Of a stretch of DNA of 13,703 bases, positions 1-13,703 are shown in pieces. The notes under the pieces were generated by a model. That model ran no database searches and was not told the DNA's origin. It worked only from the letters and a program-made list of their open reading frames with translations. Numbering within the stretch: the first letter of the stretch is position 1; each line of letters opens with the position of its first letter. Position numbers and translations under genes: made by a program. This DNA comes from Pseudomonadota bacterium (GTDB lineage: Bacteria > Bdellovibrionota_B > Oligoflexia > Oligoflexales > RGVZ01): positions 1 through 13,703 of the forward strand of contig JBEGVZ010000033.1 of assembly GCA_041178085.1 (NCBI GenBank). Direction: 5' to 3'.

Positions 1-1010
1 CGTATGACCTCGATCTGGTTCACAAAGGGACGACCGTAAACCAGCAAGGAAACCTCTGGTTCCGCATGCATGGGATAGAACGCAAAACGGAAATCTCCGG
101 GCTCGCGAATGTCGAAATACCGCTCTGACAACCAGCCCTTCTGACGTCGTGCACGCACCGGATTGATAACGGCACCATAGATCAGGGCTTTGATCATGTC
201 GGGCACGTGATTGTCCTGGTAGGCACCGCTACTGCGGTAGAGCATGTAATTCGCGGCCTGACGCACCAGAGAGCGCAGAGGCCCACGCAGGAAACCCGTT
301 CGCCGGGCTGGCTTATCAGAAGGAGCGACCACCCCTTCATAACGGCCCTTGGTTGCCCTGAACTTCTCTAGGTACTGGCGCGCATCTCCATCCTTCTCCG
401 AACCAGATTGCCGGACCCGGGCATAAAGATCCCGGATTTCGACCGTCGGGTCGAGCAGATCGTCGGCAAAATAAACCCGGTCACCGATGCGGGACGGACG
501 CAAGTTCAGAATCTTGATCCCCCTCGCCTTTGCCATCTTCGCCAGCAAAAACTCCAAAAACGTCACCGAAATGAAGCCAATGATCACATCGGGGCGCAAT
601 TGATTGAGCAGCTGATCGCACTGCTTCACTGCGCGCTCTAGAATCACAAGAAGTTCGTTGTCAGAGAACCTGCGTGAATAGTCCTGGGTATAGGAACAAT
701 GCCGTCCCATCGCCAGACGACGGTCGCTCAAGACCACGTGAAATAGATTTTCGACAGCCAGTTTCTTTTCCCATTCCCGGAGGAATTTCATGTCGGGGGT
801 CCCCGACGGGTTATCCGTAATCTCCCATTCCTTCAAAAGACAGGGGTACGAACGCTCAAAGTCAGGGTTGTTGCGCATGAACTTGGCGTAAAACAGCTTG
901 TCTGCAACGACAAAGCCACTTTCTTCGATCCGCAGGCGTTTGCTCATTTCAGCGGCAAGTCCGCTGAAAACATTGAGTGTCTGGTTCTGGGTACAAAAAA
1001 GAATCCGCAT
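1..1010 (-). CDS. KpsS/Capsule_synth-like capsular polysaccharide glycosyltransferase, candidate nonulosonyl transferase (3' end outside window)
   Basis: Not in the ORF track; translated by hand. ATG at 1010 (GGAG 6 nt upstream, 1 nt after the neuA TAA), open for 336 codons to the window edge: MRILFCTQNQTLNVFSGL...SDRRL...LRPDVIIG...FRFAFYPMHAEPEVSLLVYGRPFVNQIEVI. The FxFYP(L/M)(H/Q)xxPE...NQ segment (from 86 down to the edge) is typical of KpsS/KpsC-like CMP-ulosonate transferases. The expected KEHP-type motif would lie beyond the window. Confidence 0.75.
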   Translation of the reverse strand, partial: MRILFCTQNQTLNVFSGLAAEMSKRLRIEESGFVVADKLFYAKFMRNNPDFERSYPCLLKEWEITDNPSGTPDMKFLREWEKKLAVENLFHVVLSDRRLAMGRHCSYTQDYSRRFSDNELLVILERAVKQCDQLLNQLRPDVIIGFISVTFLEFLLAKMAKARGIKILNLRPSRIGDRVYFADDLLDPTVEIRDLYARVRQSGSEKDGDARQYLEKFRATKGRYEGVVAPSDKPARRTGFLRGPLRSLVRQAANYMLYRSSGAYQDNHVPDMIKALIYGAVINPVRARRQKGWLSERYFDIREPGDFRFAFYPMHAEPEVSLLVYGRPFVNQIEVI

Positions 1011-1011
1011 T

Positions 1012-1737
1012 TTACACTCCACGCGCGGCCGACATAATCTGCTCCGCACAGGCAAGGTCTTCCGGGGTGTCAATATCAATGCTGGACGCCAGCGACATTT
1101 CAAAGCCAATCGTCGAGGGGGGCATCAAGCAACCGCGCATCAGGTCAGAAAACCGGTAAATATATATTGCCCCGTTCGGACGAAAGACAGCCGGCAACTC
1201 TTGCCGTTGCATGAACGGGAACTCGTCATTGACGATCCCACGCAGAAAGCCATCTTCACTGGTGAAGAAGTTCTTCAAGCATTTCGCATCTTCGCGCACC
1301 GTGCTGATCAATGCACCTGCGCCAGAGCTCAAAAAGACGTCCAATGCGCGACGCACATCCGTTCCCGACCGTAATGGCGAGGACGGCTGCAGAAGCATAA
1401 GGAGCCCATCCTTTTTGACCTTGGCGGACTCTTCCAATCCGAAAAATGCATCCATTGCATGTTGCATGACGGGAAGCATCGGCGAGGAATCCCCGGCTAG
1501 AGAGCCTGGTCGCAAGAGGGGCTCCGCTCCGCTTTGCCTGGCCAAATCAAGTATCTCGGGATCGTCAGAAGAGACATAGACGCGATTGATTCTCTGATCA
1601 AACAGCGCTGCCTCAATCGAATGACTGATCAGGGGGCGACCTTGCAGAATTGCCAGATTTTTGCGCGGAATACCCTTTGACCCGCCTCTGGCTGGAATCA
1701 AAGCGACAATTGGAATGTCTTTGCTGGAACCAGCCAT
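1012..1737 (-). CDS. neuA: CMP-nonulosonic acid synthetase (acylneuraminate cytidylyltransferase)
   Basis: Motifs ALIPARGGSKGIPRKN, VSSDD, LRPxxLAGD, LLQPSSPLR, RQELP, PNGAIYI, SIDIDTPEDL. Start is ATG 1737 or GTG 1740; AGGA lies upstream. Confidence 0.95.
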   Translation of the reverse strand: MAGSSKDIPIVALIPARGGSKGIPRKNLAILQGRPLISHSIEAALFDQRINRVYVSSDDPEILDLARQSGAEPLLRPGSLAGDSSPMLPVMQHAMDAFFGLEESAKVKKDGLLMLLQPSSPLRSGTDVRRALDVFLSSGAGALISTVREDAKCLKNFFTSEDGFLRGIVNDEFPFMQRQELPAVFRPNGAIYIYRFSDLMRGCLMPPSTIGFEMSLASSIDIDTPEDLACAEQIMSAARGV

Positions 1738-1755
1738 CACATCCTGCCCAGGTCC

Positions 1756-2829
1756 CTACACCGTGCCAAAGATCTTGTTGTATTCGCCCTCTGCACGTTC
1801 CAGATCCTGGCGTTGTCCGACGTCAATCCAATACTCACAGACCGGAAAAGCGGCGGTGCATTGGCCGCGTTCACGAAGCTGCTGAAATAACTGCGGCATG
1901 TCCAACGACTCGTTTGGCTTCAAGATCCGCAGCACTTCCGGCGACAAGACGTAGATCCCAGCGTTTACAAAAAAGCGATGGGTTGGTTTCTCGTCGATTG
2001 CCTGGATCCTTGATTGCTCATCTACCGTGACGACACCGTAAGGAACTTGCATGTCAAACTCACGGACAGCCATCGTCGCAGCCGCACCCTGCTTCTGGTG
2101 AAAGTCCAGCATGCGATCGAACTTTATATTGGTCAGCACGTCGCAATTCATGACCACCATCGGCCAATCCGGAACCTCTGGCAGAAGAGCCAGCGCACCT
2201 GCGGTCCCGAGCCTGGTATCCTCACGCAAATAGTCAATGGCAAGACCAAAGCGGCTGCCATCACCGAAATGGTTCTCGATCATGTCCCGCTTGTAATTCA
2301 CGGACAGGAAAACCTTGGAAAACCCCTGCTCCGCAAAGTTCGATACGATAGTCTCCAGGATCGGACGACCACCAATTGGCAGCATGGGCTTTGGAACATC
2401 CTGCGTGAGCGGGAATAGCCTGCTGCCAAGCCCTCCGGCCATGATAATCACCGGGTTGGCCTTGGCCGTCGACTTGCTGCCTGCACTGGCTTCTTCGACG
2501 CCAATCAGGACAAGATTGCGGTCAACAACCGGGACCTGCCGGGCACCTCGCTCAACCACCTGTCTCTGCAACTGCGCAAGGTCCGTATCCGGCTTCTTGA
2601 CAACTGGATTCGGATTCATCGCAGCGGTGACCAGCGAATCAAGCCCCTGGCCTCGCAGCAAGGCCCGCCGGATGTCACCGTCAGTCACCGTCCCCAATAA
2701 CCGGCCACTGCCGTCAACGACGAACGCCATCTGGCGACCACCAGAGTCGATGGTCTGCATCACTTGCCGGATCGATGCATCAGCCGGGGCAAGACTTTTT
2801 TTCCAGTCTCTTTTCAACGAGTCCCCCAA
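1756..2829 (-). CDS. legX: CBS-domain nucleotidyltransferase, LegX/PtmE type (putative GlcN(Ac)-1-P guanylyltransferase)
   Basis: N-terminal CBS pair (VVDxxGRLLGTVTDGDIRRALL) followed by an NTP_transferase domain (IMAGGLGSRLFPLTQDVPKPML, LGTAGAL, EKP, VNAGIYVL, YWIDVG). The start may instead be TTG 2817, which has GGGGGA upstream. Confidence 0.88.
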   Translation of the reverse strand: MGDSLKRDWKKSLAPADASIRQVMQTIDSGGRQMAFVVDGSGRLLGTVTDGDIRRALLRGQGLDSLVTAAMNPNPVVKKPDTDLAQLQRQVVERGARQVPVVDRNLVLIGVEEASAGSKSTAKANPVIIMAGGLGSRLFPLTQDVPKPMLPIGGRPILETIVSNFAEQGFSKVFLSVNYKRDMIENHFGDGSRFGLAIDYLREDTRLGTAGALALLPEVPDWPMVVMNCDVLTNIKFDRMLDFHQKQGAAATMAVREFDMQVPYGVVTVDEQSRIQAIDEKPTHRFFVNAGIYVLSPEVLRILKPNESLDMPQLFQQLRERGQCTAAFPVCEYWIDVGQRQDLERAEGEYNKIFGTV

Positions 2830-2839
2830 AAGCCAGGAT

Positions 2840-4036
2840 TTATGGGATCGTCATCTGCTTGGTGATCAAACGACCATCAAGCGAGATCCGCGCAAGAACA
2901 TCTGCGATCTTCTTTCCAGCATCTCCGACCCCATAAGGGTTATGCCCCTCATGGCATCTCTTGATGAAACCCTTGTCGTTCAGACATTTCCTGACGGCCG
3001 CAAGAACTTCATCACGTCCGTAGCCGGTTTTGATTACATTTTCGCCGGCCAAGCGACCTTCCTGCCGGGATCCAATGTCTACCGTTGGACACCCAAAAGC
3101 CGGAGTTTCCTTGATGCCGCTGGATGAATTACCGACACAGGCACCCCCGGCAGGGCCACGACCACAAATGTTCAAAAGTCCGTGGTAATTGCTACGCCCA
3201 AGACTCTTGTGCAATTGGACATTGGGCACCCCTTTCCCCATGAAGCGCTCAAGTTCCGTCGCGATCCGGCGTCCACCCGCATCGTTGTTCGGGTAGGTCA
3301 AAATCACCTGAACACCTTCCCAAGCCAGGATTTCCATGGCTTGAAGAGGCCCCTCCAGCTGCCTTGCGGCATCCTCAAACTGAGTCGTCACAGAATGCTG
3401 GGTGAACACCACCAAGGGCTTCGACAGGTCCAGGTTGTACCTGGCAACAAGGTCCTCCTTGGATGCGTAAATTCCGTCAGCGATCAAATCGATCGCAGGA
3501 AATCCAACATTGAATACCCGCCAAGGCTCCTCACCCATGACCCGGATCCTGTTGGCAGCGTTTTCATTGGTCGTGAAGTGCAAGTGCGCCAACTTTGTCA
3601 TCGCGTGACGGACGGAGTCATCCAAGGCACCACCTTGCGTGACATCCCCACCCTCGATGTGAGCCGTTGGAATACGCATTTGAGTGCCCGCAATCATGGC
3701 CGCGAAACCTTCAAATCGGTCTGCGTAGACGACGAAAATGTCGGGCTTCAGCCGATCAAGTGCCTTCGAAATGGAAAGGACACCGCTGCCAATTGCCTGC
3801 GCAGTGGCGTAAAGCGTGTCGGCATCCATGTCGATCGCAACTTCCGAGTGAATCTCAAAGCCGTCTTTTTTGATTTCCTCAAGTGTCGCGCCGAAATTCC
3901 GGTCCAGATGCGCACCGGATACCATCAACTGGTAAGACAAATCCGGATGCCGCGAAATCGCACGAAGAATAGGGAACTGCAGGCCATACTCCGCCCGGTT
4001 CCCGGTAAATACTGCAACGACTCTTTTCTGTCCCAT
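2840..4036 (-). CDS. neuC: NDP-N-acetylglucosamine 2-epimerase, hydrolysing (NeuC/LegG family)
   Basis: Motifs TGNRAEYG, GAHL, ADRFE, AHIEGGD, DDSVRHAMTKLAHLHF, GEEPWRV, GNSSSGIKE, GSRQEGR, NPYGxGDAG. The real start is ATG 4036 (TGATG overlap with the upstream stop), not 4099. Confidence 0.93.
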   Translation of the reverse strand: MGQKRVVAVFTGNRAEYGLQFPILRAISRHPDLSYQLMVSGAHLDRNFGATLEEIKKDGFEIHSEVAIDMDADTLYATAQAIGSGVLSISKALDRLKPDIFVVYADRFEGFAAMIAGTQMRIPTAHIEGGDVTQGGALDDSVRHAMTKLAHLHFTTNENAANRIRVMGEEPWRVFNVGFPAIDLIADGIYASKEDLVARYNLDLSKPLVVFTQHSVTTQFEDAARQLEGPLQAMEILAWEGVQVILTYPNNDAGGRRIATELERFMGKGVPNVQLHKSLGRSNYHGLLNICGRGPAGGACVGNSSSGIKETPAFGCPTVDIGSRQEGRLAGENVIKTGYGRDEVLAAVRKCLNDKGFIKRCHEGHNPYGVGDAGKKIADVLARISLDGRLITKQMTIP

Positions 4037-4932
4037 CAGCTGCCTTTTTCTTTCTGCAAAAGATTCAGGCCATCGGCAAGCGCCGTGGTTGCCCGCCACT
4101 TTAGCAAGTCAGCGGCAAGTTTGCTCGACAAAACAACGTGGGACGGGGGAATCGACGGTTCATAAGCCGCACGCGAAATGACCTTGGGAGCCGGGTGTCC
4201 GCCGAGCCGGCCGATCAACTTGGCAAGGTCCTCCACAGAGGTTCCGATACCGGTAGAGATGTTAAACACCCCGCTCGCATCAGAACTGACTGCCGCGGCA
4301 AACGCCCTCGCCACGTCGGCTACGAAAATGTAATCCCGCACCGGACTGGCATCGTTGACGTGGATCACCGGCCCCTTTCTCGCCTGTTCAATGACCTCCG
4401 AAAGCACGTTCCGGGGCGACATCCCGGGTCCGTAGGTGTTGGCAAGGCGAAGGATCGTAGCCGCCGCGTTTTCGCGTAAAAAGGCCTCGCTACGAACTTT
4501 GGAACGGCCGTATTCCGACGCGGGCTCGGTGGGCGAGTCTTCTGTGAGCGCCCCCTGAACCCTGTCCCCGTATACGGCCGCGCTGGATGCGTAAATCACC
4601 CGTGCAAATCCCGCCTCAACGACCTGGCGAAGCACCTGCTCGCCACCTGGGTAAGGGATTCCCTCCGTAAGGGCACTACCCTGGGCACCCGCCAGATTCG
4701 ACTCTGCAAGGTGCACACAGACATCTTCCGGTCCGGGAGCAAGGCCACGGTATCCTGGCGTGTGGACGACACGCAGAAGCTCCCCGCCTGCACCCGCGCG
4801 GTCAGCAAAAGGGGAATCATTCCCAGCCGGGCGCGTCGTGCAGGCAAGAACCTCGTGACCGACGGCGACAAGGGCTTCGCACACATGCCGGCCAATGAAC
4901 CCCAAACCACCCAGCACCCAAACCCGCTTCAT
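4036..4932 (-). CDS. Extended SDR NAD(P)-dependent epimerase/reductase (candidate NDP-4-keto-6-deoxy-HexNAc 4-reductase)
   Basis: GGLGFIG Rossmann motif, HLA, YASSAAVYG, catalytic YGRSK, LRLANTYGP, RDYIFVADVA, FNISTG. It lacks the T-(S/D)-E dehydratase signature. The specific activity is inferred from gene context only. Confidence 0.85.
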   Translation of the reverse strand: MKRVWVLGGLGFIGRHVCEALVAVGHEVLACTTRPAGNDSPFADRAGAGGELLRVVHTPGYRGLAPGPEDVCVHLAESNLAGAQGSALTEGIPYPGGEQVLRQVVEAGFARVIYASSAAVYGDRVQGALTEDSPTEPASEYGRSKVRSEAFLRENAAATILRLANTYGPGMSPRNVLSEVIEQARKGPVIHVNDASPVRDYIFVADVARAFAAAVSSDASGVFNISTGIGTSVEDLAKLIGRLGGHPAPKVISRAAYEPSIPPSHVVLSSKLAADLLKWRATTALADGLNLLQKEKGS

Positions 4933-4978
4933 CGCGCGCCACCCAAATTGGATGCATCAATCAATCGACGCCAATCGT

Positions 4979-6025
4979 TCAAAGGTGAAAGCCTTCGATG
5001 TCCTCGGGGTTGACATGGATGTCCGGCGACAATTCGCGAGTCGCACGCTTACCCAGGACATCCTCAAGCCGGTTTGCCAGGATCCTGCCTGTGCCCGGTC
5101 GCTTCACCCAAACGTTGTCGTGGCTGAAAACCTCGCCTTTTTTAACCGGCCTGATTGTCACCACGGTCGAATAAGCAAAGTCAATGACCGGCTGTTCTTC
5201 CTTGAGGATGGTTTTTGATCCGCCGCGGGCTTCCCAGATGGCACGCGAGCCAACGATCAAATCCCGCAGCTCATTCGGCTCAATCGAAATGCCAGTGTCG
5301 GGGCCCGGCCACTGCCGTGAAATCGTGAAATGCTTTTCAAGAATGGTCGCGCCAAGCGCCACGGCTCCAAGGCCGGTCCAGATGTTCAGCGAATGACAAC
5401 TCAACCCAACCGGCAGATCCGGAAATTCCGTCTTCAAGTGTGTCACCGCTCCAAGACGTACTTTTTCGTAGGGCGTTGGATACATGCTTGTGCAGTGCAG
5501 CAGGGCCAGCGGAACATTGAACTTCCTGATCGCCTCCACTGATGCGCGAATGGCCGGCATGTCATTCATCCCGGTCGAGAGGATGATTGGCTTACCCTTC
5601 TTGGCGATATGCTGCAGGAGGGGGATGTTATTGCACTCCCCTGAACCGATCTTGAAGGCCGGCACACCCATGGCGTCCAGACGGTCACAGGCTTCCCGGG
5701 AAAACGGTGTCGAAAGGTAAGTAATGCCTTTTTTCTTGCAGTAGGCTTGGACCTGCCGTTCTTCCTCTTCAGTCAGCTCACAGCGCTTGATGATATCCCA
5801 GAGCTTTTCCTTTGAAATCTGCCCGGGCGTCATGTCGGTCGGAACCATCTCCTTGTCCGTGATATGACACTGGAACTTCACAACCTCCGCGCCCGCATCG
5901 ACAGCGGCATCAACAAGCGCAATCGCCTTGTCCAGCTCACCCTCGTGGTTGATACCCACTTCAGCGATCACATAGGGCGCGTGGTCGGGGCCAATTTTGC
6001 GCCCTTCAATTTCAAAGTTCTTCAA
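4979..6025 (-). CDS. neuB: N-acetylneuraminate synthase family (NeuB) with C-terminal SAF/antifreeze-like domain
   Basis: Motifs IAEVGINHEG, VKFQ, STPFS, FKIGSGECNN, KPIILSTGM, LLHCTSMYPTP, LEKHFT, GPD, VKRPGTG. TTG start with AAGGAG RBS 7 nt upstream. Confidence 0.96.
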   Translation of the reverse strand: MKNFEIEGRKIGPDHAPYVIAEVGINHEGELDKAIALVDAAVDAGAEVVKFQCHITDKEMVPTDMTPGQISKEKLWDIIKRCELTEEEERQVQAYCKKKGITYLSTPFSREACDRLDAMGVPAFKIGSGECNNIPLLQHIAKKGKPIILSTGMNDMPAIRASVEAIRKFNVPLALLHCTSMYPTPYEKVRLGAVTHLKTEFPDLPVGLSCHSLNIWTGLGAVALGATILEKHFTISRQWPGPDTGISIEPNELRDLIVGSRAIWEARGGSKTILKEEQPVIDFAYSTVVTIRPVKKGEVFSHDNVWVKRPGTGRILANRLEDVLGKRATRELSPDIHVNPEDIEGFHL

Positions 6026-6037
6026 TTTTCGACTCCT

Positions 6038-7048
6038 TCAAATGTTGTATCTGCCGGGCTTGTAAAGTTTCATGGCATGACCAGACCGGAACCATTCGAT
6101 GGTCTCGCCGATTCCCTTTTTGAAACCTTGCAGGCCTGCGTATTGAGGTTTCCACTCAGTCAGACTCAGGATCTTGCTGTTGTCCCCCCAAAGACGATCG
6201 ACCTCGCTGCGCTGGGGGCGAACGCGGTCCCCATCCAGCTTGATCACGGGGTTGACAGACAGGACTTCTGCAATCGCTTTGATCGAGGCCTCGACTGAAA
6301 TCTCAAAGTTACTGCTGATGTTGACCACTTCGCCGACGGCAGCGTCAGCCTCCGCGAGAGCAATGAACCCTGCCGCAGTATCAGCGACAAAGTTAAAATC
6401 ACGCGTCGGATGAATGGCGCCGAGCTTCAATTCGCCCGCACCGGCCAAAAGCTGCGTGATCACTGTCGGCAAAACGGCCCGGGCAGACTGCCTTGGGCCG
6501 TAAGTGTTGAACGGCCGAGCAACTACGACCGGGAAATCAAAGGACCGATGAAACGAGATGGCAATCTGGTCAGAACCGATTTTTGTTGCCGAATAAGGCG
6601 ACTGGCCGTGAAGGGGATGTGCCTCAGTGATCGGGACAAACTGCGCAGTTCCATACACTTCGCTTGTCGAGGTTTGAACGAAGCGCTTGACCCCCGCCCG
6701 ACGCGCTGCCTCGAGCAAATTCAGCGTCCCCTTGACGTTGGTTTCCACGTAAGTCGCAGGACTGTGATAGGAGTAAGGAATCGCAATCAACGCCGCGAGG
6801 TGAAAAACAACGTCAATTCCCTCCATCGCCTTCATGCATCCGTGCGGGTCGGTGATATCGCCGGCAAACACATCCAGCTGCGATTTCTTGCGTTCGTCAA
6901 GGTATTCCAGCCAGCCCCAAGAGCCGCTTGAGTTGTACCGGACAAACGCCCGGACCTGACAACCGTGTTGGATCAGCGCTTCAGTAAGGTGCGATCCAAT
7001 GAATCCACCCGCACCAGTGACAAGAACCTTCGCTCCCTTGATGCGCAA
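6038..7048 (-). CDS. legB: NDP-GlcNAc 4,6-dehydratase, LegB type
   Basis: GAGGFIGSHL, AFVRYNSxxxWGWL, HLAALIAIPYSY, TSTSEVYGTA, QSPYSATKIG, RPFNTYGPRQSARA, RDFNFV, RPxxSEVxRLW. This motif set is characteristic of the dehydratases that open legionaminic-acid clusters. TTG start with GGAGG RBS at 7054-7058. Confidence 0.88.
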   Translation of the reverse strand: MRIKGAKVLVTGAGGFIGSHLTEALIQHGCQVRAFVRYNSSGSWGWLEYLDERKKSQLDVFAGDITDPHGCMKAMEGIDVVFHLAALIAIPYSYHSPATYVETNVKGTLNLLEAARRAGVKRFVQTSTSEVYGTAQFVPITEAHPLHGQSPYSATKIGSDQIAISFHRSFDFPVVVARPFNTYGPRQSARAVLPTVITQLLAGAGELKLGAIHPTRDFNFVADTAAGFIALAEADAAVGEVVNISSNFEISVEASIKAIAEVLSVNPVIKLDGDRVRPQRSEVDRLWGDNSKILSLTEWKPQYAGLQGFKKGIGETIEWFRSGHAMKLYKPGRYNI

Positions 7049-7076
7049 ATTAGCCTCCGAGACAGCTACAGCCAGC

Positions 7077-7105
7077 TTGACGATGTATGACCCATTTCAT
7101 ATTCT
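7077..7105 (+). promoter_or_regulatory. Candidate sigma70-type promoter for the plus-strand operon
   Basis: TTGACG (7077-7082), exactly 17 nt of spacer, then TATTCT (7100-7105), in the gap between the divergent operons. Confidence 0.6.
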
Positions 7106-7151
7106 CGGGCACCAAAGTTTTCCACCCAAAAGTCTCGAGAGTATTGAAAAA

Positions 7152-8363
7152 TTGGCTGATTTGAACGTCCAATTACCGACCCGGAGCCGGATCGAGCGAG
7201 CCCAGCAAAGGGCACGTGAGTTCGTTCTGGCCTGTCGCACGGGCGAGACTGAATTCAGCCTCACCAGGGGTGGTTCAAGTTCCTGTTTTTCAAGGTGTTT
7301 CGGCCTTTTCAACATTCACCTGCTGGGTCTGGGCCACGAAATCTCAGGGCTGGAAGCCACCCTGGCTGCGCGAATCTGCGCGGATCTTGACGAGACCCTT
7401 GCCAAACGCAAAGCCCAGGGAGCTGACCCCAGACAGGATAAACACTACCTGCAGCTTCTGACGTTTTCCCTGAGTGCCTTGGCGACCATCGGCAAAGTTG
7501 CTGACGCGCCGCTGGAAGACCACATCAAGCCCTTGCTGTTAAACGCCGACAACCTGGATAACTTCCTGACCCAGGCGGGCGTCTTCGAGGGGCGCGCAAC
7601 ATCGGGCAATCTCGCCATGTTCCATGCGATCCTGCTCTGGCACGCACAGATTTACCTGGGACTCGACACCTCCAGCGCAATCTCCAAATGGAATGACCTG
7701 CACTTGCAGAGGCGAAACCGGTTTGGCTTCTGGGGAAGTAGTTCAAACATGACCTACCTGCAGTTCCAAAACGGGTTCCACCAGTACGAGATGCTAAACT
7801 ACCCCACCCTGAGGCTAGACGAAGGTGCGGAGCTCGCCGCCCGCAACGCCGCGCTCATGGCGGACCGTGCTGGACAGTTTGCGCCGTATCCGGGCGGTGG
7901 CGGTTGCTATGACTTCGATGCGGTCGCGCTGATAGCTGCGTCCAAAAACTCCCGCAAGTACGCGCCACTGTTGACCCGGACACTCGATACAATTTTGTCC
8001 GCGCAAAACGATGACGGTGGTTTCTGTGAGTCGCGTATTGTCCGTCCGCGATCGCCAAAAAACCTGTTCCGCCAAATCGCTCACTGCATCCGCCCTGAAA
8101 AACCGGGAGCGACTGAACGGTTGCGCTACTTCGCCACATTACAGCGACCCAGGCACGACATTGTCACGACCCATTGGACGAGTCGTCACCGCCGGTGGGA
8201 TGAATCAGACCTTTGGGATACCTGGTTTCGTTTGATGGCAATCGCGACCATCGACAAAGTTCTCGCAGCAGGCAGCGGCGTCACATGGCGATTCATCGAC
8301 TATCCCGGGATAGGGTATAAGCCGGACGTTCCGAAGACGCAAACTCCGGAGCGAAATGCGTGA
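7152..8363 (+). CDS. Uncharacterised protein, probable alpha/alpha-barrel (prenyltransferase/squalene-cyclase repeat-like)
   Basis: Long ORF with repeat-like segments LQRRNRFGFWG, LMADRAGQF and ILSAQNDDGGF (QxxDGGF at 8004-8024), plus GGGCYDFDAV and ESDLWDTWFR. The start is uncertain: ATG 6999 overlaps legB and ATG 7083 lies inside the candidate promoter, so TTG 7152 or 7161 is preferred. The stop overlaps the next GTG start (GTGA). Confidence 0.7.
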   Translation: MADLNVQLPTRSRIERAQQRAREFVLACRTGETEFSLTRGGSSSCFSRCFGLFNIHLLGLGHEISGLEATLAARICADLDETLAKRKAQGADPRQDKHYLQLLTFSLSALATIGKVADAPLEDHIKPLLLNADNLDNFLTQAGVFEGRATSGNLAMFHAILLWHAQIYLGLDTSSAISKWNDLHLQRRNRFGFWGSSSNMTYLQFQNGFHQYEMLNYPTLRLDEGAELAARNAALMADRAGQFAPYPGGGGCYDFDAVALIAASKNSRKYAPLLTRTLDTILSAQNDDGGFCESRIVRPRSPKNLFRQIAHCIRPEKPGATERLRYFATLQRPRHDIVTTHWTSRHRRWDESDLWDTWFRLMAIATIDKVLAAGSGVTWRFIDYPGIGYKPDVPKTQTPERNA

Positions 8364-9478
8364 AGGAAACCACCGGTAAAAATCTTTTTGTCATTGTCCC
8401 GCAACATGTCCCGAGCGGCCCAGTAAAAGGCGCCCTGGCAATATGCAACTACCTTTGTGACTACATGCCAGTGACATTTGTGGCGGTCAAAACCCCTGTG
8501 CAGCAGGACGGAACCCTCCGCCCGGAAGTCCGCACCCTGAGCCTTGCCGAGGGCAAAGGCATCTTCCAAAAGGCGCGCATGTTCCGTACAGCGCTGGCAG
8601 CCGCTGGTGGCAGAAAACAAAACGTTTCCCTGTCGATGTGTTTCGCAGCGGACTTGGTGAACTTATTTGCAGCGGGACTGGCAACGCGCATCACCAGTGT
8701 TCGCGGCAACCTGCTCCGCAACTACGCTGGTGATTACGGCCCCGCGGGAATCCCCTTTGCCATCGTGCATTTGTTGATGCTGCACGGCATGGACCTGGTC
8801 CTCTCCATGTCAGACGCCATGACCCGCCAACTCCGGCTTTTTGGTCACTTCGGCACAAGGCTCATAAGAAATTTCATCGACGAGGATGCCGCTGCCAGGG
8901 ACGCGGAATCAAACGCAGATATGCGCGCCCCGACACCAACGAAGGAGGCGGACGGCGAAATCACTTTCGCTTTCCTTGGTAGTCTTACCCGACGCAAACG
9001 CCCCGAACTCGTGATCGACACCGTCGCAAAACTGCAAGGGGCCAGGATCCCGTCGCGTGCCGTCATGGTGGGCAGCGGACCACTCGCGGCGCAGCTTGCA
9101 AAATACGCTGAGTACCGAGGAGTGAGCGACCGGATACGTTTTGCCGGCCAGGTCAGGAATCCCTTGCCGGAACTGAAGCACTGCGACTACTTGTTGTTGC
9201 CATCATCTTCGGAGGGCGTACCCCGGGCGGCACTCGAAAGCTTGTTTGTGGGTGTCCCCTGTATTCTCAGGGATGTTGATGCAAACCGGGAATTGATTCG
9301 CGAAGGCCGGACTGGATTGCTGTTCAAAGACGACGAAGAACTCAGCCATGTGGTCATGCAAGCCGCCACCGCTCACCAGCGGTCCGCCCAAGTGCACAAG
9401 GACATTCTGCTACCGGCTGAATACCGGCAAGCAAACAATTGCAAACAGCTCCTGGAGATCCTCCTGAATGGGAAATGA
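8360..9478 (+). CDS. Glycosyltransferase family 4 (GT-B, retaining)
   Basis: N-terminal SGP loop, FLGSLTRRKR, VGSGP, RIRFAGQ, LLPSSSEGVPRAALES (EX7E), GVPCI, RELIREGRTGLLF. GGAG RBS at 8348-8351. Confidence 0.92.
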   Translation: MKETTGKNLFVIVPQHVPSGPVKGALAICNYLCDYMPVTFVAVKTPVQQDGTLRPEVRTLSLAEGKGIFQKARMFRTALAAAGGRKQNVSLSMCFAADLVNLFAAGLATRITSVRGNLLRNYAGDYGPAGIPFAIVHLLMLHGMDLVLSMSDAMTRQLRLFGHFGTRLIRNFIDEDAAARDAESNADMRAPTPTKEADGEITFAFLGSLTRRKRPELVIDTVAKLQGARIPSRAVMVGSGPLAAQLAKYAEYRGVSDRIRFAGQVRNPLPELKHCDYLLLPSSSEGVPRAALESLFVGVPCILRDVDANRELIREGRTGLLFKDDEELSHVVMQAATAHQRSAQVHKDILLPAEYRQANNCKQLLEILLNGK

Positions 9479-10052
9479 ATCCTTTGAAAATTACACTCTT
9501 TACCTGCAGCAGACGAGCCGGCTCGGAAATATTTATCGCCGGCATTTGCTATTCCCTCGCTTGTGTAAACACTTGATCGGCAGGACTCTAGACATAGGGT
9601 GTGGTGTGGGCGAGCTGCTTGCATATCGAAGCCGCACGGTCGGCATCGATATCAATCCCCACAACATTGAAATTTGCAAGCAGAGGGGCCTTGAGGCCCA
9701 GGTGATTGAAAATGGCCGCTACCCGGCAGACGACGCAACATTCGACTCAGCGATCGCCAACCATGTCATCGAACACCTTCCAGACCCAGGCCCACTTCTG
9801 TCCGAGGCATACCGGGTACTAAAAACGGGCGGAATCCTGATGCTGGGTGTCCCGGGAGTGAAAGGGTTTAACTCTGACCCGGACCACAAAGTTTATTACG
9901 ACCTAGAGAAACTCACCAACTGCGTCGTGGCGCATGGATTCTCCGTATCAGACCACTTTTACATGCCCTTACCAGTTTTGGTGTTGACCGGTTATTTGCG
10001 TCAGTTCAGCCTCTACTTGATCTGCAAAAAGACCGCAAAACCTGCGCACTGA
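9468..10052 (+). CDS. Class I SAM-dependent methyltransferase
   Basis: LDIGCGVG motif I, GIDIN, FDSAIANHVIEHLPDP, EAYRVLKTGG. GGAGA RBS upstream and an 11-nt overlap with the GT4 gene. Confidence 0.9.
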   Translation: MGNESFENYTLYLQQTSRLGNIYRRHLLFPRLCKHLIGRTLDIGCGVGELLAYRSRTVGIDINPHNIEICKQRGLEAQVIENGRYPADDATFDSAIANHVIEHLPDPGPLLSEAYRVLKTGGILMLGVPGVKGFNSDPDHKVYYDLEKLTNCVVAHGFSVSDHFYMPLPVLVLTGYLRQFSLYLICKKTAKPAH

Positions 10053-10077
10053 TTTTTCACCTGCCCCGGAGAACCCT

Positions 10078-10827
10078 TTGGTCACGAACCTCACAAGCAT
10101 GGCACGAAAACTTCTCCACAGGGCACTTGGACGGAACACCCCTGAGGCGGACGCCAACAGGATTCGTCAACAGGTTGCAGCACGTTTCTTGCATGGCGAG
10201 GGCATCGAGGTTGGAGCCCTTCACTCTCCGCTGTGGATCCCTTCTTCCGCCAGGGTGCGATATGTAGATCGTTTAAGTGTCGCGGATTTGCGCCTACATT
10301 ACCCGGAGCTCAGTAATCTGCCCTTGGTGGAAGTTGACATCATCGATGACGGTGAGAAGCTGGTGACACTTGCCCCCGCATCCCAGAATTTTGTGATTGC
10401 CAACCACTTCCTGGAACACACCCAAGACCCGATCGGCACAATGAAACGCCATGTTGCCGTACTGAAACCAGGCGGCGTCTTGTACACCGCGGTTCCAGAC
10501 AAGCGTTGGACATTCGATATGAATCGTCCGGAAACCACTCTCGATCATCTGATCAAGGATCACGATCTCGGTCCGGCATGGTCCTACGAAGACCATGTCC
10601 GTGAGTATGCGGGATTGGTGGATTGCCTTGCGGGGCAGGCGCTGGAGGATCGCGTCCGCTTCATCAAAGAAACCGCCTACAGCATCCACTTCCATGTCTG
10701 GTCCGCATCGTCCTACCGGGCCTTCCTCGAGCATTTGTGCGGTCCGGCCGGATTACCGCTCGAAATCGTGCATTTCCAGACGAATCCAGGGCGAGCTGAA
10801 ACCATCGCCGTCATGCGCAGGACATGA
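10078..10827 (+). CDS. SAM-dependent methyltransferase-like protein (polysaccharide-locus type)
   Basis: GEGIEVGALHSP, RYVD, NFVIANHFLEHxxDPI, VLKPGGVLY, VPDKRWTFD, HFHVW. TTG start with GGAGA 5 nt upstream; alternative ATG at 10099. Confidence 0.82.
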   Translation: MVTNLTSMARKLLHRALGRNTPEADANRIRQQVAARFLHGEGIEVGALHSPLWIPSSARVRYVDRLSVADLRLHYPELSNLPLVEVDIIDDGEKLVTLAPASQNFVIANHFLEHTQDPIGTMKRHVAVLKPGGVLYTAVPDKRWTFDMNRPETTLDHLIKDHDLGPAWSYEDHVREYAGLVDCLAGQALEDRVRFIKETAYSIHFHVWSASSYRAFLEHLCGPAGLPLEIVHFQTNPGRAETIAVMRRT

Positions 10828-10831
10828 GCCA

Positions 10832-12199
10832 ATGAGAGTACCCCTGCGGTTTGCCCTTCCGTTCCTGGGTCTTCTTGCGACCATCCATTTGACTGCGATT
10901 GTCGCTGCATCGACCAACCTACCCTTAATGGACGAATGGGAAATGCTGGCTCCAGGCGGGCTGGACAGAACCCTGAACTGGCGGTGGGTTTTTGCCGCTC
11001 ACAACGAGCACCGGATCGTCTTCACCAAACTAATCACCTGGGTTCTTTACAAGGCCAATGGATGGCATCATGTGGCCAACCTTGTGTTCAATTTTTTCTT
11101 GTATATTTTGACAATCGCAGCATTTCTCTTTTTACTGCGCACGATCAAGCAATCCAGCGCGGGTCTGCAAAAAAAAGGGATAGGATTTGATGAAATTGGC
11201 TGGGCGACTCTCGCGTTGTCCGGTCTCGCCTGGGAAAATCACTCGTGGGGTTTCCAGAACCAGTTTCACCTGTTTCTACTATTCTTTTTCCTTGGTTCCG
11301 CCTTTGCCATCCGGGGGCCTGATAAATTGCAGATCTGGTTAGCCGCATCGCTTGCGATTTGCAGCGCCTGGTCTTTCTCATCTGGTGTTGTCTGTGCACT
11401 TGCCATTGCCGCGCTAATCGCCTGGAGGGGTATCGTTGGCTCACTTGCTTGGCGCAAGATCACGCCCCAACTGATTTTAATTCTTGCAGCGATAACCCTG
11501 TGGGTCGCAGGTTTTCAAAAAAACCCAGGACATCCCGCCTACAGCTGGCCCACGGGGAACCATTTCTGGGGACACTTTTTGACAATGCTGGGCAGCGGAT
11601 GGGGTCTGAAGTCTGTTTTGAAGGTCCCGGTGGCAGCTGTGGTTTTAGGCCTGGTTCTTTTCCAGTTGTCCCTGGTCGCCATGTCATTGATAAAATCAAA
11701 CAAAAGCAACTCCAGAAAACAGCATCAGCAATGGTTGGGCGCGATCTTGTTTACCTGTTCTGGACTTATTGCCACAGCCGCCTTGACATCTCTTGCAAGG
11801 GGGCAATTCGGAAGGGAACAGGCGGAGTCCTCCAGGTACACGGAGTTTACCTTTTTCTTGTTACCCCTCGCTTGGACTATTTTCACATCCGGCCCCAAGG
11901 AAGGGTTTAGAAGTCACATCAACACCCGACAAGCTTGGATAATCAAAGCCATTATTGGCCTGCTGCTGGTGTGGAGTTTTGCTCCATACTACGATTACAG
12001 AAAGGTTTATCAGTGGCATTCGGACCAAATGGCTGCAGGGCGCAAGTGTGTCGCCACTTTCTACGCACAAAACACTGCGGCAACAGCGTCATGCTCGACG
12101 CTTTACCTGGCACCGATAGAGGCGCAGTTGCTCCGGGCGAGGGAACTTAACCTTGCATTTACCGCGGAATACGGGATTAATCAGGGGGTTACCCCCTGA
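10832..12199 (+). CDS. Polytopic membrane protein, putative GT-C-fold glycosyltransferase
   Basis: About 10-12 hydrophobic segments by eye. Acidic PLMDEW motif right after TM1, then HNEHRI, GFQNQF and a late SSRY motif. The start is moved to ATG 10832 because the ORF-track extension from 10595 overlaps the methyltransferase. Confidence 0.65.
   Translation: MRVPLRFALPFLGLLATIHLTAIVAASTNLPLMDEWEMLAPGGLDRTLNWRWVFAAHNEHRIVFTKLITWVLYKANGWHHVANLVFNFFLYILTIAAFLFLLRTIKQSSAGLQKKGIGFDEIGWATLALSGLAWENHSWGFQNQFHLFLLFFFLGSAFAIRGPDKLQIWLAASLAICSAWSFSSGVVCALAIAALIAWRGIVGSLAWRKITPQLILILAAITLWVAGFQKNPGHPAYSWPTGNHFWGHFLTMLGSGWGLKSVLKVPVAAVVLGLVLFQLSLVAMSLIKSNKSNSRKQHQQWLGAILFTCSGLIATAALTSLARGQFGREQAESSRYTEFTFFLLPLAWTIFTSGPKEGFRSHINTRQAWIIKAIIGLLLVWSFAPYYDYRKVYQWHSDQMAAGRKCVATFYAQNTAATASCSTLYLAPIEAQLLRARELNLAFTAEYGINQGVTP
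12181..12199 (+). terminator. GC-rich inverted repeat overlapping the stop codon; possible weak terminator or mRNA-stabilising hairpin
   Basis: TCAGGGGGT-T-ACCCCCTGA (perfect 9-bp arms), followed by ACTTTCT, which is only a weak U tract. Confidence 0.35.
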
Positions 12200-12229
12200 A
12201 CTTTCTACTGATCCCGGGGAGTTGTGCGC

Positions 12230-13297
12230 ATGCGAATCTTAATCACTGGCGGGGCCGGTTTTGTTGGTTCCTCTCTCGCTCGCACGTTCAAATCCGACGG
12301 CGCAGAGGTCGTCACGTTTGACAACCTGCGACGGCGCGGGTCTGAGCGCAACGTCATCGACTTCCAGAGTCGCGGGATCGAGTTTATTCACGGCGACATC
12401 CGTAACGCCGCGGATGTGGATTCAATAACGGGTAATTTTGACCTGGTGATCGACGCGTCTGCGGAACCCAGTGTCCTTGCTGGCACTGACGGCAACGCCA
12501 TCCGTTACCTGAACGACACCAACCTTAACGGCACGTTGAATTGCCTTGAATTCGTCCGAACGCGCAAATCGAAGTTGATCTTTTTGAGTACCAGCCGGGT
12601 TTATGCCATCAAGGCCCTTCAGGAAATCAAACTCCGCGAGGAAACGACCCGCTTTCAAATTAGCGAGACCGGCAACTTGCCCGGCCTTTCCTTGGAGGGA
12701 GTCACGGAGGATTTTCCCGTTGTGGGGCAAGGATTTCGCTCGCTCTACGGTGCGACCAAACTTGCATCAGAGCTCTTTGTTGAGGAATACGCTCAGACCT
12801 TCAACATGCCAGCTGTCATCAACCGCTGCGGCGTGATCGCAGGCCCCGGCCAGTTTGGTAAAACCGATCAGGGTGTCTTTACGATGTGGGTGGCCCGTCA
12901 CTTGTGGCCAAAAGGCCTGCAGTACACAGGATTTGGCGGTCAGGGAAAACAGGTGCGGGATTTGCTGCACCCTTCTGATTTGCACGAATTGTTGAAACTA
13001 CAAATCAAGGCCCTGCCAGACCTTCGCGGCGAAACGTTCGTTGCGGCTGGAGGTCAAAAGGGATCGGCAAGCCTTTGCGAGTTTACGGCTATCTGCCGCG
13101 AGGTCACGGGCAACGCTCCAGAGATTGCCAGCAACCCCCAAACGGCGACGGTCGACGTACCGTTTTTTGTTGGTGATTCAACCAAGTGTAAAAAAACGTT
13201 TGGCTGGGCACCGAAAGCAACACCTGAGACGATCGTAAAAGACATCGCTGGCTGGCTGCGCAGCGATGAAACCAATTTGAAACCGCTTTTTGCGTGA
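12230..13297 (+). CDS. NAD-dependent epimerase, CDP-paratose 2-epimerase (RfbE/Tyv)-like SDR
   Basis: ITGGAGFVG, DNLRRRGSERN, SAEPSVLAG, STSRVY, YGATK, NRCGVIAGPGQFGKTDQG, GFGGQGKQVRDLLH. ATG 12230 is preferred over GTG 12224 on GGGGAG spacing. Confidence 0.88.
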   Translation: MRILITGGAGFVGSSLARTFKSDGAEVVTFDNLRRRGSERNVIDFQSRGIEFIHGDIRNAADVDSITGNFDLVIDASAEPSVLAGTDGNAIRYLNDTNLNGTLNCLEFVRTRKSKLIFLSTSRVYAIKALQEIKLREETTRFQISETGNLPGLSLEGVTEDFPVVGQGFRSLYGATKLASELFVEEYAQTFNMPAVINRCGVIAGPGQFGKTDQGVFTMWVARHLWPKGLQYTGFGGQGKQVRDLLHPSDLHELLKLQIKALPDLRGETFVAAGGQKGSASLCEFTAICREVTGNAPEIASNPQTATVDVPFFVGDSTKCKKTFGWAPKATPETIVKDIAGWLRSDETNLKPLFA

Positions 13298-13309
13298 GAG
13301 ACACAGACC

Positions 13310-13703
13310 ATGAGTATTGCGATTGTCACCGGTTCATCCGGACTGATAGGAAGTGAAACCGTACGTGCCCTCCACGCCAAAGGCTTTGATGTTGTCGGCG
13401 TCGACAATAACATGCGCGCGTACTTCTTTGGTGCAGACGGATCAACGGACTGGGCAGCGAAGGAACTGACAAAGGCCCTGCCCAAGTACACGCATGTCAG
13501 CATCGACATCCGGGATCAAGACGCCGTCAACAAGCTCTTCACCAAGTACGGCAACTCAACCAGCATCGTGGTGCACTGCGCGGCACAACCCTCCCACGAC
13601 TGGGCAGCGAAAGAGCCGGTGACGGACTTCGGCGTCAACGCTTTGGCCACACTCTATTTGCTTGAAGCGACGCGCCACAACTGCCCCGACGCCACGTTTA
13701 TTT
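13310..13703 (+). CDS. Second CDP-paratose 2-epimerase-like SDR (3' end outside window)
   Basis: Not in the ORF track; translated by hand: MSIAIVTGSSGLIGSETV...VGVDNNMRAYFFG...DIRD...VHCAAQPSHDWAAKEPVTDFGVNALATLYLLEATRHNCPDATFI, open to the window edge. Confidence 0.88.
   Translation, partial: MSIAIVTGSSGLIGSETVRALHAKGFDVVGVDNNMRAYFFGADGSTDWAAKELTKALPKYTHVSIDIRDQDAVNKLFTKYGNSTSIVVHCAAQPSHDWAAKEPVTDFGVNALATLYLLEATRHNCPDATFI

Follow-up and report, generated by a model that had tools for sequence, protein, structure and literature searches.

We analysed a 13,703-bp window (the whole stretch of DNA considered here), which is an entire contig (C33; JBEGVZ010000033.1) of a metagenome-assembled genome (MAG; 3.0 Mb in 136 contigs, 96% complete, 0.9% contaminated) and which carries on its minus strand an operon of genes predicted to serve the synthesis of a nonulosonic acid. 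Calls of open reading frames (ORFs) and Pfam and NCBIfam scans of 14 ORFs gave the order legB, neuB, a gene for an extended short-chain dehydrogenase/reductase (SDR), neuC, a gene for a PtmE-type CBS-nucleotidyltransferase, neuA and a truncated last gene (Table 1). Successive genes are separated by 12 and 46 nt, overlap by 1 nt, and are then separated by 10, 15 and 1 nt. The same order from legB to neuA, with gaps of at most 46 nt and no aminotransferase or acetyltransferase in the window, had been read in a preliminary description of this DNA; the ORF calls and family scans agree with it, and no aminotransferase or acetyltransferase family was matched among the 14 ORFs. The gene order, the packing and the aminotransferase-free window are thus confirmed. 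Since the window is the whole contig, the operon is truncated at its downstream side, and the lack of an aminotransferase within the window alone says little.

We therefore turn to the genome and the genus. The GDP-linked pathway to CMP-legionaminic acid (legionaminic acid, Leg) of C. jejuni, reportedly described by Schoenhofen and colleagues in 2009, comprises PtmE, LegB, LegC, LegH, LegG, LegI and LegF. We found no DegT/LegC-type sugar aminotransferase in the 96%-complete genome: a search with PF01041 (DegT), which was positive in 14 of 14 reference genomes, returned only a methionine/aspartate-type aminotransferase and a serine hydroxymethyltransferase, as partial matches of 37 and 29 bits, and the LegC model TIGR04181 had no match. 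No NeuD scored above cut-off in the genome either, the best match to TIGR03570 (cut-off 160.8) reaching 56.8 bits and lying on other contigs. The look beyond the contig for LegC/DegT and LegH/NeuD homologues that the preliminary description had proposed thus returned none. The four further genomes of the genus that were searched (G006, 77% complete; G001, G002 and G003, about 90% each) were likewise without DegT at E<=1e-20. Since all five genomes of the genus, the source genome (G000) included, are without a DegT-family sugar aminotransferase, the gap is not an assembly accident of a single MAG. LegC and LegH/NeuD of the GDP-linked Leg pathway are, then, what was not found, while LegB (by family score), the PtmE-type nucleotidyltransferase, and the 2-epimerase, synthase and CMP-synthetase families are all present.

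The other enzymes of the operon are recognizable. LegB has the motifs STSEVYG and YSATK, and a PDB sequence search at E<=1e-40 gave no match for it. The best solved relative of NeuC is the GDP/UDP-diNAcBac hydrolysing 2-epimerase of A. baumannii (5xvs, 240 bits), human GNE scoring 166 bits; its start may be the ATG at 4036, giving 398 amino acids, or the GTG at 4099, giving 419. The nucleotidyltransferase, called legX in the preliminary description, indeed has the CBS plus NTP_transferase architecture of PtmE-type proteins, which also adjoins LegB in canonical Leg loci; the name legX could not be verified. NCBIfam gave guanylyltransferases as its best matches, none of which reached the cut-off. 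The last gene had been described as a transferase. The part in the window (336 amino acids) has no Pfam, NCBIfam or meaningful PDB match, so that the assignment leans on homologues (42-47% identity) that directly follow NeuA or LegB in loci L200, L146, L153 and L203. Full-length homologues in L200 (521 amino acids) and L155 (540 amino acids) match PF05159 with 32.5 and 50.4 bits (cut-off 20), in a C-terminal region that falls outside the part in the window. Members of the KpsS/KpsC family use CMP-Kdo, which makes a CMP-nonulosonate transferase a fair guess, and we regard the last gene as likely to encode a CMP-sugar transferase.

Taken together, we lean towards the view that the operon makes a CMP-5-acetamido-3,5,9-trideoxy-nonulosonate (9-deoxy-N-acetylneuraminic acid, 9-deoxy-Neu5Ac, or its 7-epimer), with a 4-ketoreductase replacing LegC and LegH. 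In this predicted scheme, PtmE would supply the N-acetylglucosamine donor, presumably as GDP-GlcNAc, and LegB would yield the 4-keto-6-deoxy sugar. The SDR with NADPH would then turn the C4 keto group into a hydroxyl, in place of LegC plus LegH. NeuC would strip the nucleotide and invert C2 to give 6-deoxy-ManNAc or 6-deoxy-TalNAc, which NeuB would join with phosphoenolpyruvate (PEP) and NeuA would convert to the CMP-sugar. The KpsS/KpsC-like protein would likely move the residue of the CMP-sugar onto a surface glycan. All substrates here, like the product, are predictions from gene content and family membership, and both configurations at C7, that of 9-deoxy-Neu5Ac and that of its 7-epimer, are compatible with the sequence.

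The extended SDR and its cofactor site

The SDR has a Rossmann motif (GGLGFIG), the motifs SSAAVYG and YGRSK, the S-Y-K triad and no dehydratase Glu. Because it has SSA where LegB has TSE, it is not a dehydratase. The residues at the end of beta-2 in SDRs indicate whether NAD or NADP(H) is preferred. At this position GalE and PelX have the NAD-binding Asp (VVDNL and VLDDL), and the window SDR has T-T-R; none of 17 members of its subfamily has Asp or Glu there, and 11 of the 17 have Arg within two residues. The loss of the beta-2 Asp and the frequency of Arg point to NADP(H), and hence to a reductase, which exchanges its cofactor. All the sequence features of extended-SDR reductases of 4-keto-6-deoxy sugars (GxxGxxG, S-Y-K, no Glu and an NADP(H)-type beta-2) are present. 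The protein thus fits a predicted NADP(H)-dependent 4-ketoreductase, and its reductase-like cofactor site bears out the preliminary description, which had taken the extra SDR to be of the reductase type.

Two results count against this assignment. Among solved structures, the SDR is nearest by sequence and fold to UDP-hexose and UDP-GlcNAc 4-epimerases, namely T. maritima GalE (4zrm) and PelX (6wjb), with 85 bits. A fold search with a structure model (pLDDT 85) does not separate epimerase, dehydratase and reductase: epimerases, decarboxylases, dehydratases and one reductase, Rmd, come up at near-equal scores, Rmd (2pk3) standing at rank 27 (TM 0.78) with a similar E-value. Rmd, a GDP-4-keto-6-deoxy-D-mannose reductase, and the UDP-4-keto-6-deoxy-GlcNAc 4-reductases are extended SDRs of short length that act on what a 4,6-dehydratase has made, and the window SDR would likewise reduce such a keto sugar; it differs from Rmd in its weak sequence similarity (2pk3 is not among the PDB matches at E<=1e-10), in substrate and in genomic context.

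The SDR might thus be an epimerase, acting at C4 of an NDP-N-acetylhexosamine (NDP-HexNAc) or on the finished nonulosonate and giving, by another logic, a sugar that differs from Neu5Ac or 9-deoxy-Neu5Ac in configuration only. Besides the solved relatives, the motif SSAAVYGD, which we take to resemble GalE, speaks for this. There is also a precedent for modification after synthesis, since A. baumannii is described, in the sections covered of PMC5595891, as altering Leg by added dehydrogenases, although these, by the same account, are classical adh_short SDRs and not extended ones. The lost Asp and common Arg at beta-2 argue otherwise, as does the 4,6-dehydratase-type gene that accompanies the SDR in all 23 well-flanked loci (see below), as expected of a keto-sugar reductase. 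We consider an epimerase improbable.

Recurrence of the cassette

The closest database relatives of the SDR are 61% and 49% identical to it, and all others less than 40%; it shares with the nearest ones the motifs HLAE, SSAAVYGD, GPGMSxxNVLS and PVRDY. In the congener G006, legB, neuB, the SDR gene, neuC and the nucleotidyltransferase gene stand in identical order, NeuB and NeuC being 85-88% identical to those of the window and the SDR only 48%. A degenerate DNA pattern for the GPGMS motif matched, among 128 loci, only in the window, in G006 and in L038, a contig of a proteobacterial MAG (a stricter first pattern had missed L038, and the loosened version was used). In JGI metagenomes at least 120 stretches matched the pattern; we examined 80 of them with hidden Markov models built from the loci at hand. 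A search of genome contigs by the generic motif [AV]SSA[AV]VYGD, by comparison, brought mostly unrelated GalE-like SDRs, and the cassette was found in L038 alone among its 80 loci.

The SDR subfamily was present in 78 of the 80 metagenome loci examined. Where at least 1.3 kb was available on both sides (41 loci), NeuC adjoins the SDR in 39 and NeuB lies within 2.5 kb of it in 37. Flanks of at least 5 kb on each side were available at 23 loci, which carry NeuC (23), NeuA (23), PtmE (21), LegB (18), DegT (7) and PglD (3). As the loci are related to each other and an SDR motif drawn from cassette members was used to select them, the counts show linkage and not independent events, which lessens what they can say for the pathway. 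The five loci without LegB have another 4,6-dehydratase-type gene, two of them a dTDP-glucose-dehydratase-like SDR and three (L131, L154 and L191) a Polysacc_synt_2 protein (PseB/PglF-type) that immediately adjoins NeuB or the SDR, so that a dehydratase-type gene is present in 23 of 23. The subfamily of the SDR is thus linked to nonulosonate loci, outside which it was not found among the loci examined. The synteny that the preliminary description had suggested looking for in other genomes exists in G006, and the cassette recurs widely without an adjacent aminotransferase.

Individual loci show the settings of the cassette. L038 has NeuB-SDR-NeuC-PtmE-LegB with no DegT in 20.8 kb; its source genome has DegT genes on other contigs. 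L038 and L156 are among the loci with a second complete NeuB/NeuC set. L131 is a compact island in which a Maf flagellin glycosyltransferase closes the cassette, and such a setting needs only a CMP-nonulosonate; in L191 the cassette ends in a polysialyltransferase-like gene. In L153, L203 and L146 the 4-4.8 kb past the KpsS-like gene are free of DegT and PglD. In L154, NeuA is followed directly (5273-6637) by genes for a class-III aminotransferase, a CN-hydrolase and a classical SDR, whose products may modify the sugar further.

The NeuB sugar site and the apparent branching of the pathways

The NeuB of the operon, the only one in the genome, is closest to the Neu5Ac synthase of N. meningitidis (NmNeuB, 1xuu), with 350 bits (E 1e-103), and stays under the cut-off of TIGR03569, the N-acetylneuraminate synthase equivalog (Table 1). 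It keeps the PEP- and metal-site motifs (KIGSGECNN, the equivalents of H215 and H236, and PGPD). The 70-85 loop, however, is altered relative to NmNeuB (N74Q, D76S and a one-residue insertion), as is position 184 (N184S). This loop is assigned to specificity at C4-C6 of the hexose in the part of PMC7371886 that was covered. By this comparison the sugar site of the window NeuB is remodelled.

An alignment of loci L129-L208 divides the cassette NeuBs into two subclades of 46 and 10 rows, and the window NeuB is in the smaller one, subclade B. That subclade shares N74Q/E/K, D76S, the one-residue insertion, Y80W and N184S, and has Phe at position 54, as in LegI-type enzymes. The two subclades may differ in substrate or in C7 stereochemistry.

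Trees, all built by a quick method whose support values are to be read with care, set these enzymes apart. The 53 SDR-adjacent NeuBs group with three others of the same loci in a single clade (SH-aLRT 99), away from six NeuBs linked to DegT/PglD and four of second sets; the second NeuB of L038 scores 152 bits against NmNeuB. Similarly, 56 SDR-adjacent NeuCs fall on one side of a branch (SH-aLRT 100). In the LegB tree (50 rows), by contrast, LegBs of SDR loci and of DegT loci intermix, with seven changes. This pattern indicates that the pathways diverge downstream of the dehydratase, whose step looks to be shared.

Two loci, L145 and L199 (Table 1), combine LegB-NeuB-PglD-DegT with NeuA-NeuB-SDR-NeuC-PtmE. 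Each has two NeuBs, which belong to different clades, but a single NeuC, PtmE and LegB in common, and each looks like a branch point from which two nonulosonates would be made.

Weighing the proposed pathway

Several further observations weigh against the proposed pathway. The source genome is a MAG of 136 contigs, and the contig stops inside the last gene of the operon; DegT, where it occurs in the 7 of 23 well-flanked loci, lies 4.3-7.7 kb away (never nearer than 4.3 kb); and a class-III aminotransferase adjoins NeuA in L154. These points would suit an ordinary legionaminic-acid pathway whose aminotransferase and N-acetyltransferase are in unassembled DNA, past the contig end, or of another enzyme class. 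A search of 131 genomes of the phylum for LegB-like genes was positive in 17, and we scanned 11 of the 15 LegB loci outside G000 and G006 (three from the genus of L119 and one 2.3-kb contig made up the rest). DegT is directly beside LegB or PtmE in eight of the 11 canonical loci, usually with a PglD-type acetyltransferase, NeuB and NeuC, and is 3.5 kb away in one. Such a neighbour is what an ordinary pathway would lead one to expect; together with the missing DegT in the genome and its four congeners, the empty 4-4.8 kb past the KpsS-like gene in three related loci, the position of the window NeuB outside the LegI clade and the conserved SDR that would be left unexplained, it makes this pathway very improbable.

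There is a second group of contrary points. In the two remaining LegB loci, L115 and L118, LegB is accompanied by a plain nucleotidyltransferase and a short SDR but by neither NeuB nor DegT (Table 1), and these NeuB-less trios mean that LegB-type dehydratases also serve plain 6-deoxy-sugar routes. A LegI-type NeuB (that of L119) has only 150 bits to NmNeuB, against 350 for the window NeuB, and in the larger NeuB subclade (46 of 56 rows, the window not among them) the 70-85 loop and N184 are retained as in NmNeuB, which is what one would expect of an enzyme that uses N-acetylmannosamine. We also considered the trios as instances of the same system and rejected them, as their SDRs are 22-28% identical to the window SDR and of another subfamily. 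The trio of L118 adjoins a flagellin gene, and that of L115 lies near a set of HpcH-aldolase, DHQ-synthase and cytidylyltransferase genes.

These points feed the main rival of the proposed pathway, in which the operon would hold two independent modules of three genes: NeuC, NeuB and NeuA would make CMP-Neu5Ac from UDP- or GDP-GlcNAc, and a separate NDP-6-deoxy-HexNAc (of the QuiNAc or FucNAc type) for the same glycan would come from PtmE, LegB and the SDR. The NeuB resemblance, the residues retained in most cassette NeuBs, the NeuC score above the NeuC equivalog cut-off and the free-standing trios are all in line with it. It sits poorly with an SDR subfamily that, among the loci examined, is confined to nonulosonate loci and keeps its place next to NeuC in 39 of 41, whereas the dehydratase shifts place or type, and with free-standing trios whose SDRs are of another subfamily. 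Further evidence on the same side comes from the window NeuB, whose C4-C6 loop and residue 184 are not those of NmNeuB, from the second complete NeuB/NeuC sets of L038 and L156, and from the Maf island of L131, which requires one CMP-sugar only. Moreover, we know of no glycosyltransferase that uses GDP-HexNAc donors. We judge the two-module arrangement rather unlikely.

Our preferred reading hence remains the reduction of the LegB product and its passage to NeuC and NeuB, a pathway that the preliminary description had also put forward. The absent DegT, the recurring synteny and the reductase-like SDR strengthened that proposal; the product is still a prediction, and NeuB is of the Neu5Ac-synthase type.

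The plus strand from 6999 on carries unrelated glycan genes. A 454-amino-acid ORF at 6999-8363 (+), which runs divergently to legB, matched no family in Pfam, NCBIfam or elsewhere; as annotated, it begins 50 nt inside legB, so that the real start is probably later. Weak homologues (37-48% identity over 90-150 amino acids) adjoin the cassette in G006 (L012 4-400, divergent), L129 and L161. A glycan-assembly block follows at 8360-13702 (Table 1).

Table 1. Coordinates of the operon, of its plus-strand neighbours and of the loci compared with it
Feature	Locus	Position	Strand	Basis
LegB-type NAD-dependent 4,6-dehydratase, 336 aa	window	6038..7048	-	TIGR04180 487.4 bits (cut-off 475); PF16363 246 bits
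NeuB-family nonulosonate synthase, 348 aa	window	4979..6025	-	PF03102 254.7 bits + SAF; TIGR03569 365 bits (<399.65 cut-off)
Extended SDR ('SDRx'), 298 aa	window	4036..4932	-	PF01370 105 bits; no equivalog
NeuC/LegG-type hydrolysing NDP-HexNAc 2-epimerase	window	2840..4036	-	TIGR03568 375.8 bits (cut-off 235.9)
PtmE-type CBS + sugar-1-phosphate nucleotidyltransferase, 357 aa	window	1756..2829	-	PF00571 + PF00483
NeuA-type CMP-nonulosonate synthetase, 242 aa	window	1012..1740	-	PF02348 66.6 bits; TIGR03584 PseF 114 bits (<205.7 cut-off)
KpsS/KpsC-like (Capsule_synth) protein, N-terminal ~336 aa, cut by contig end	window	3..1010	-	full-length homologues elsewhere
GT4 glycosyltransferase	window	8360-9478	+	family scan
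S-adenosylmethionine (SAM) methyltransferase, first of two	window	9468-10052	+	family scan
SAM methyltransferase, second of two	window	10078-10827	+	family scan
534-aa ORF, no family	window	10595-12199	+	family scan
Further extended SDR, first of two	window	12224-13297	+	family scan
Further extended SDR, second of two, cut by contig end	window	13310-13702	+	family scan
LegB-nucleotidyltransferase-short-SDR trio	L115	7866-10429		
LegB-nucleotidyltransferase-short-SDR trio	L118	9536-12094		
Two-branch locus	L145	330-12688		
Two-branch locus	L199	7376-19895		

Relation to known nonulosonate pathways

Three biosynthetic logics of nonulosonates have been described: Neu/Kdn, Leg and Pse. The window operon has much of the GDP-linked Leg pathway of C. 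jejuni, namely a PtmE-type nucleotidyltransferase, a LegB above cut-off, a LegG-like 2-epimerase, a NeuB-family synthase and a cytidylyltransferase. It differs in that operon and genome are without LegC and LegH/NeuD and an extended SDR is there instead, in that NeuB and NeuC fall in clades of their own, and in the predicted product, which would have a hydroxyl and not an N-acetyl group at C7. With the Neu5Ac pathway (N. meningitidis SiaA, SiaC and SiaB; NeuB structures 1xuu and 1xuz) it shares the NeuB similarity and the NeuC and NeuA families, but it has three genes more (PtmE, LegB and SDR), interleaved with NeuB and NeuC in one operon, and the NeuB changes at the 70-85 loop and position 184. 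In terms of these systems, the cassette would correspond to the GDP-linked Leg pathway as far as the 4-keto sugar and to the Neu5Ac pathway from the hexosamine on.

A product of the predicted class exists in nature. F. nucleatum 25586 has a 5-amino-3,5,9-trideoxy-nonulosonate of the fusaminic-acid type, found together with 6-deoxy-L-AltNAc (Vinogradov et al. 2017, as cited in passages of PMC7371886, PMC5595891 and PMC12940168), and a passage of PMC7371886 speaks of 'one instance' of a mono-amino 3,5,9-trideoxy nonulosonate in nature as of 2020. Like the predicted product, this sugar is mono-amino, 9-deoxy and 7-hydroxy, and 6-deoxy-L-AltNAc is the hexose through which a route that reduces instead of aminating would pass. 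Unlike the predicted product, it is L-glycero-L-gluco configured, which implies a start from an inverting PseB-type dehydratase and not from LegB. No such sugar appears in the portions covered of the texts on SugarBase (10.64898/2026.04.20.719630) and by Kleikamp et al. (PMC8157484). A full-text literature search, with most subscription journals outside its reach, returned no pathway with this gene set, natural 3,5,9-trideoxy nonulosonates only from F. nucleatum, and no biosynthetic genes for the fusaminic-type sugar.

Nonulosonic acids cap bacterial capsules, lipopolysaccharides and flagellins, and they shape recognition by phages, lectins and immune receptors. We see it as an evenly balanced question whether a 4,6-dehydratase, a dedicated NADPH reductase and co-evolved NeuC and NeuB clades make up a widespread and so far undescribed third route, leading to a 9-deoxy, 7-hydroxy sialic acid (a 7-hydroxy analogue of Leg) on the capsules and flagellins of many environmental bacteria. 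If so, a conserved cassette in which reduction takes the place of amination would add a class of mono-amino 9-deoxy nonulosonates with a defined gene signature, and would account for the origin of trideoxy sugars of the fusaminic type. The cassette would also correct automatic annotations of 'sialic acid' and 'legionaminic acid' in metagenomes, and would be a source of enzymes for the synthesis of 9-deoxy sialosides.

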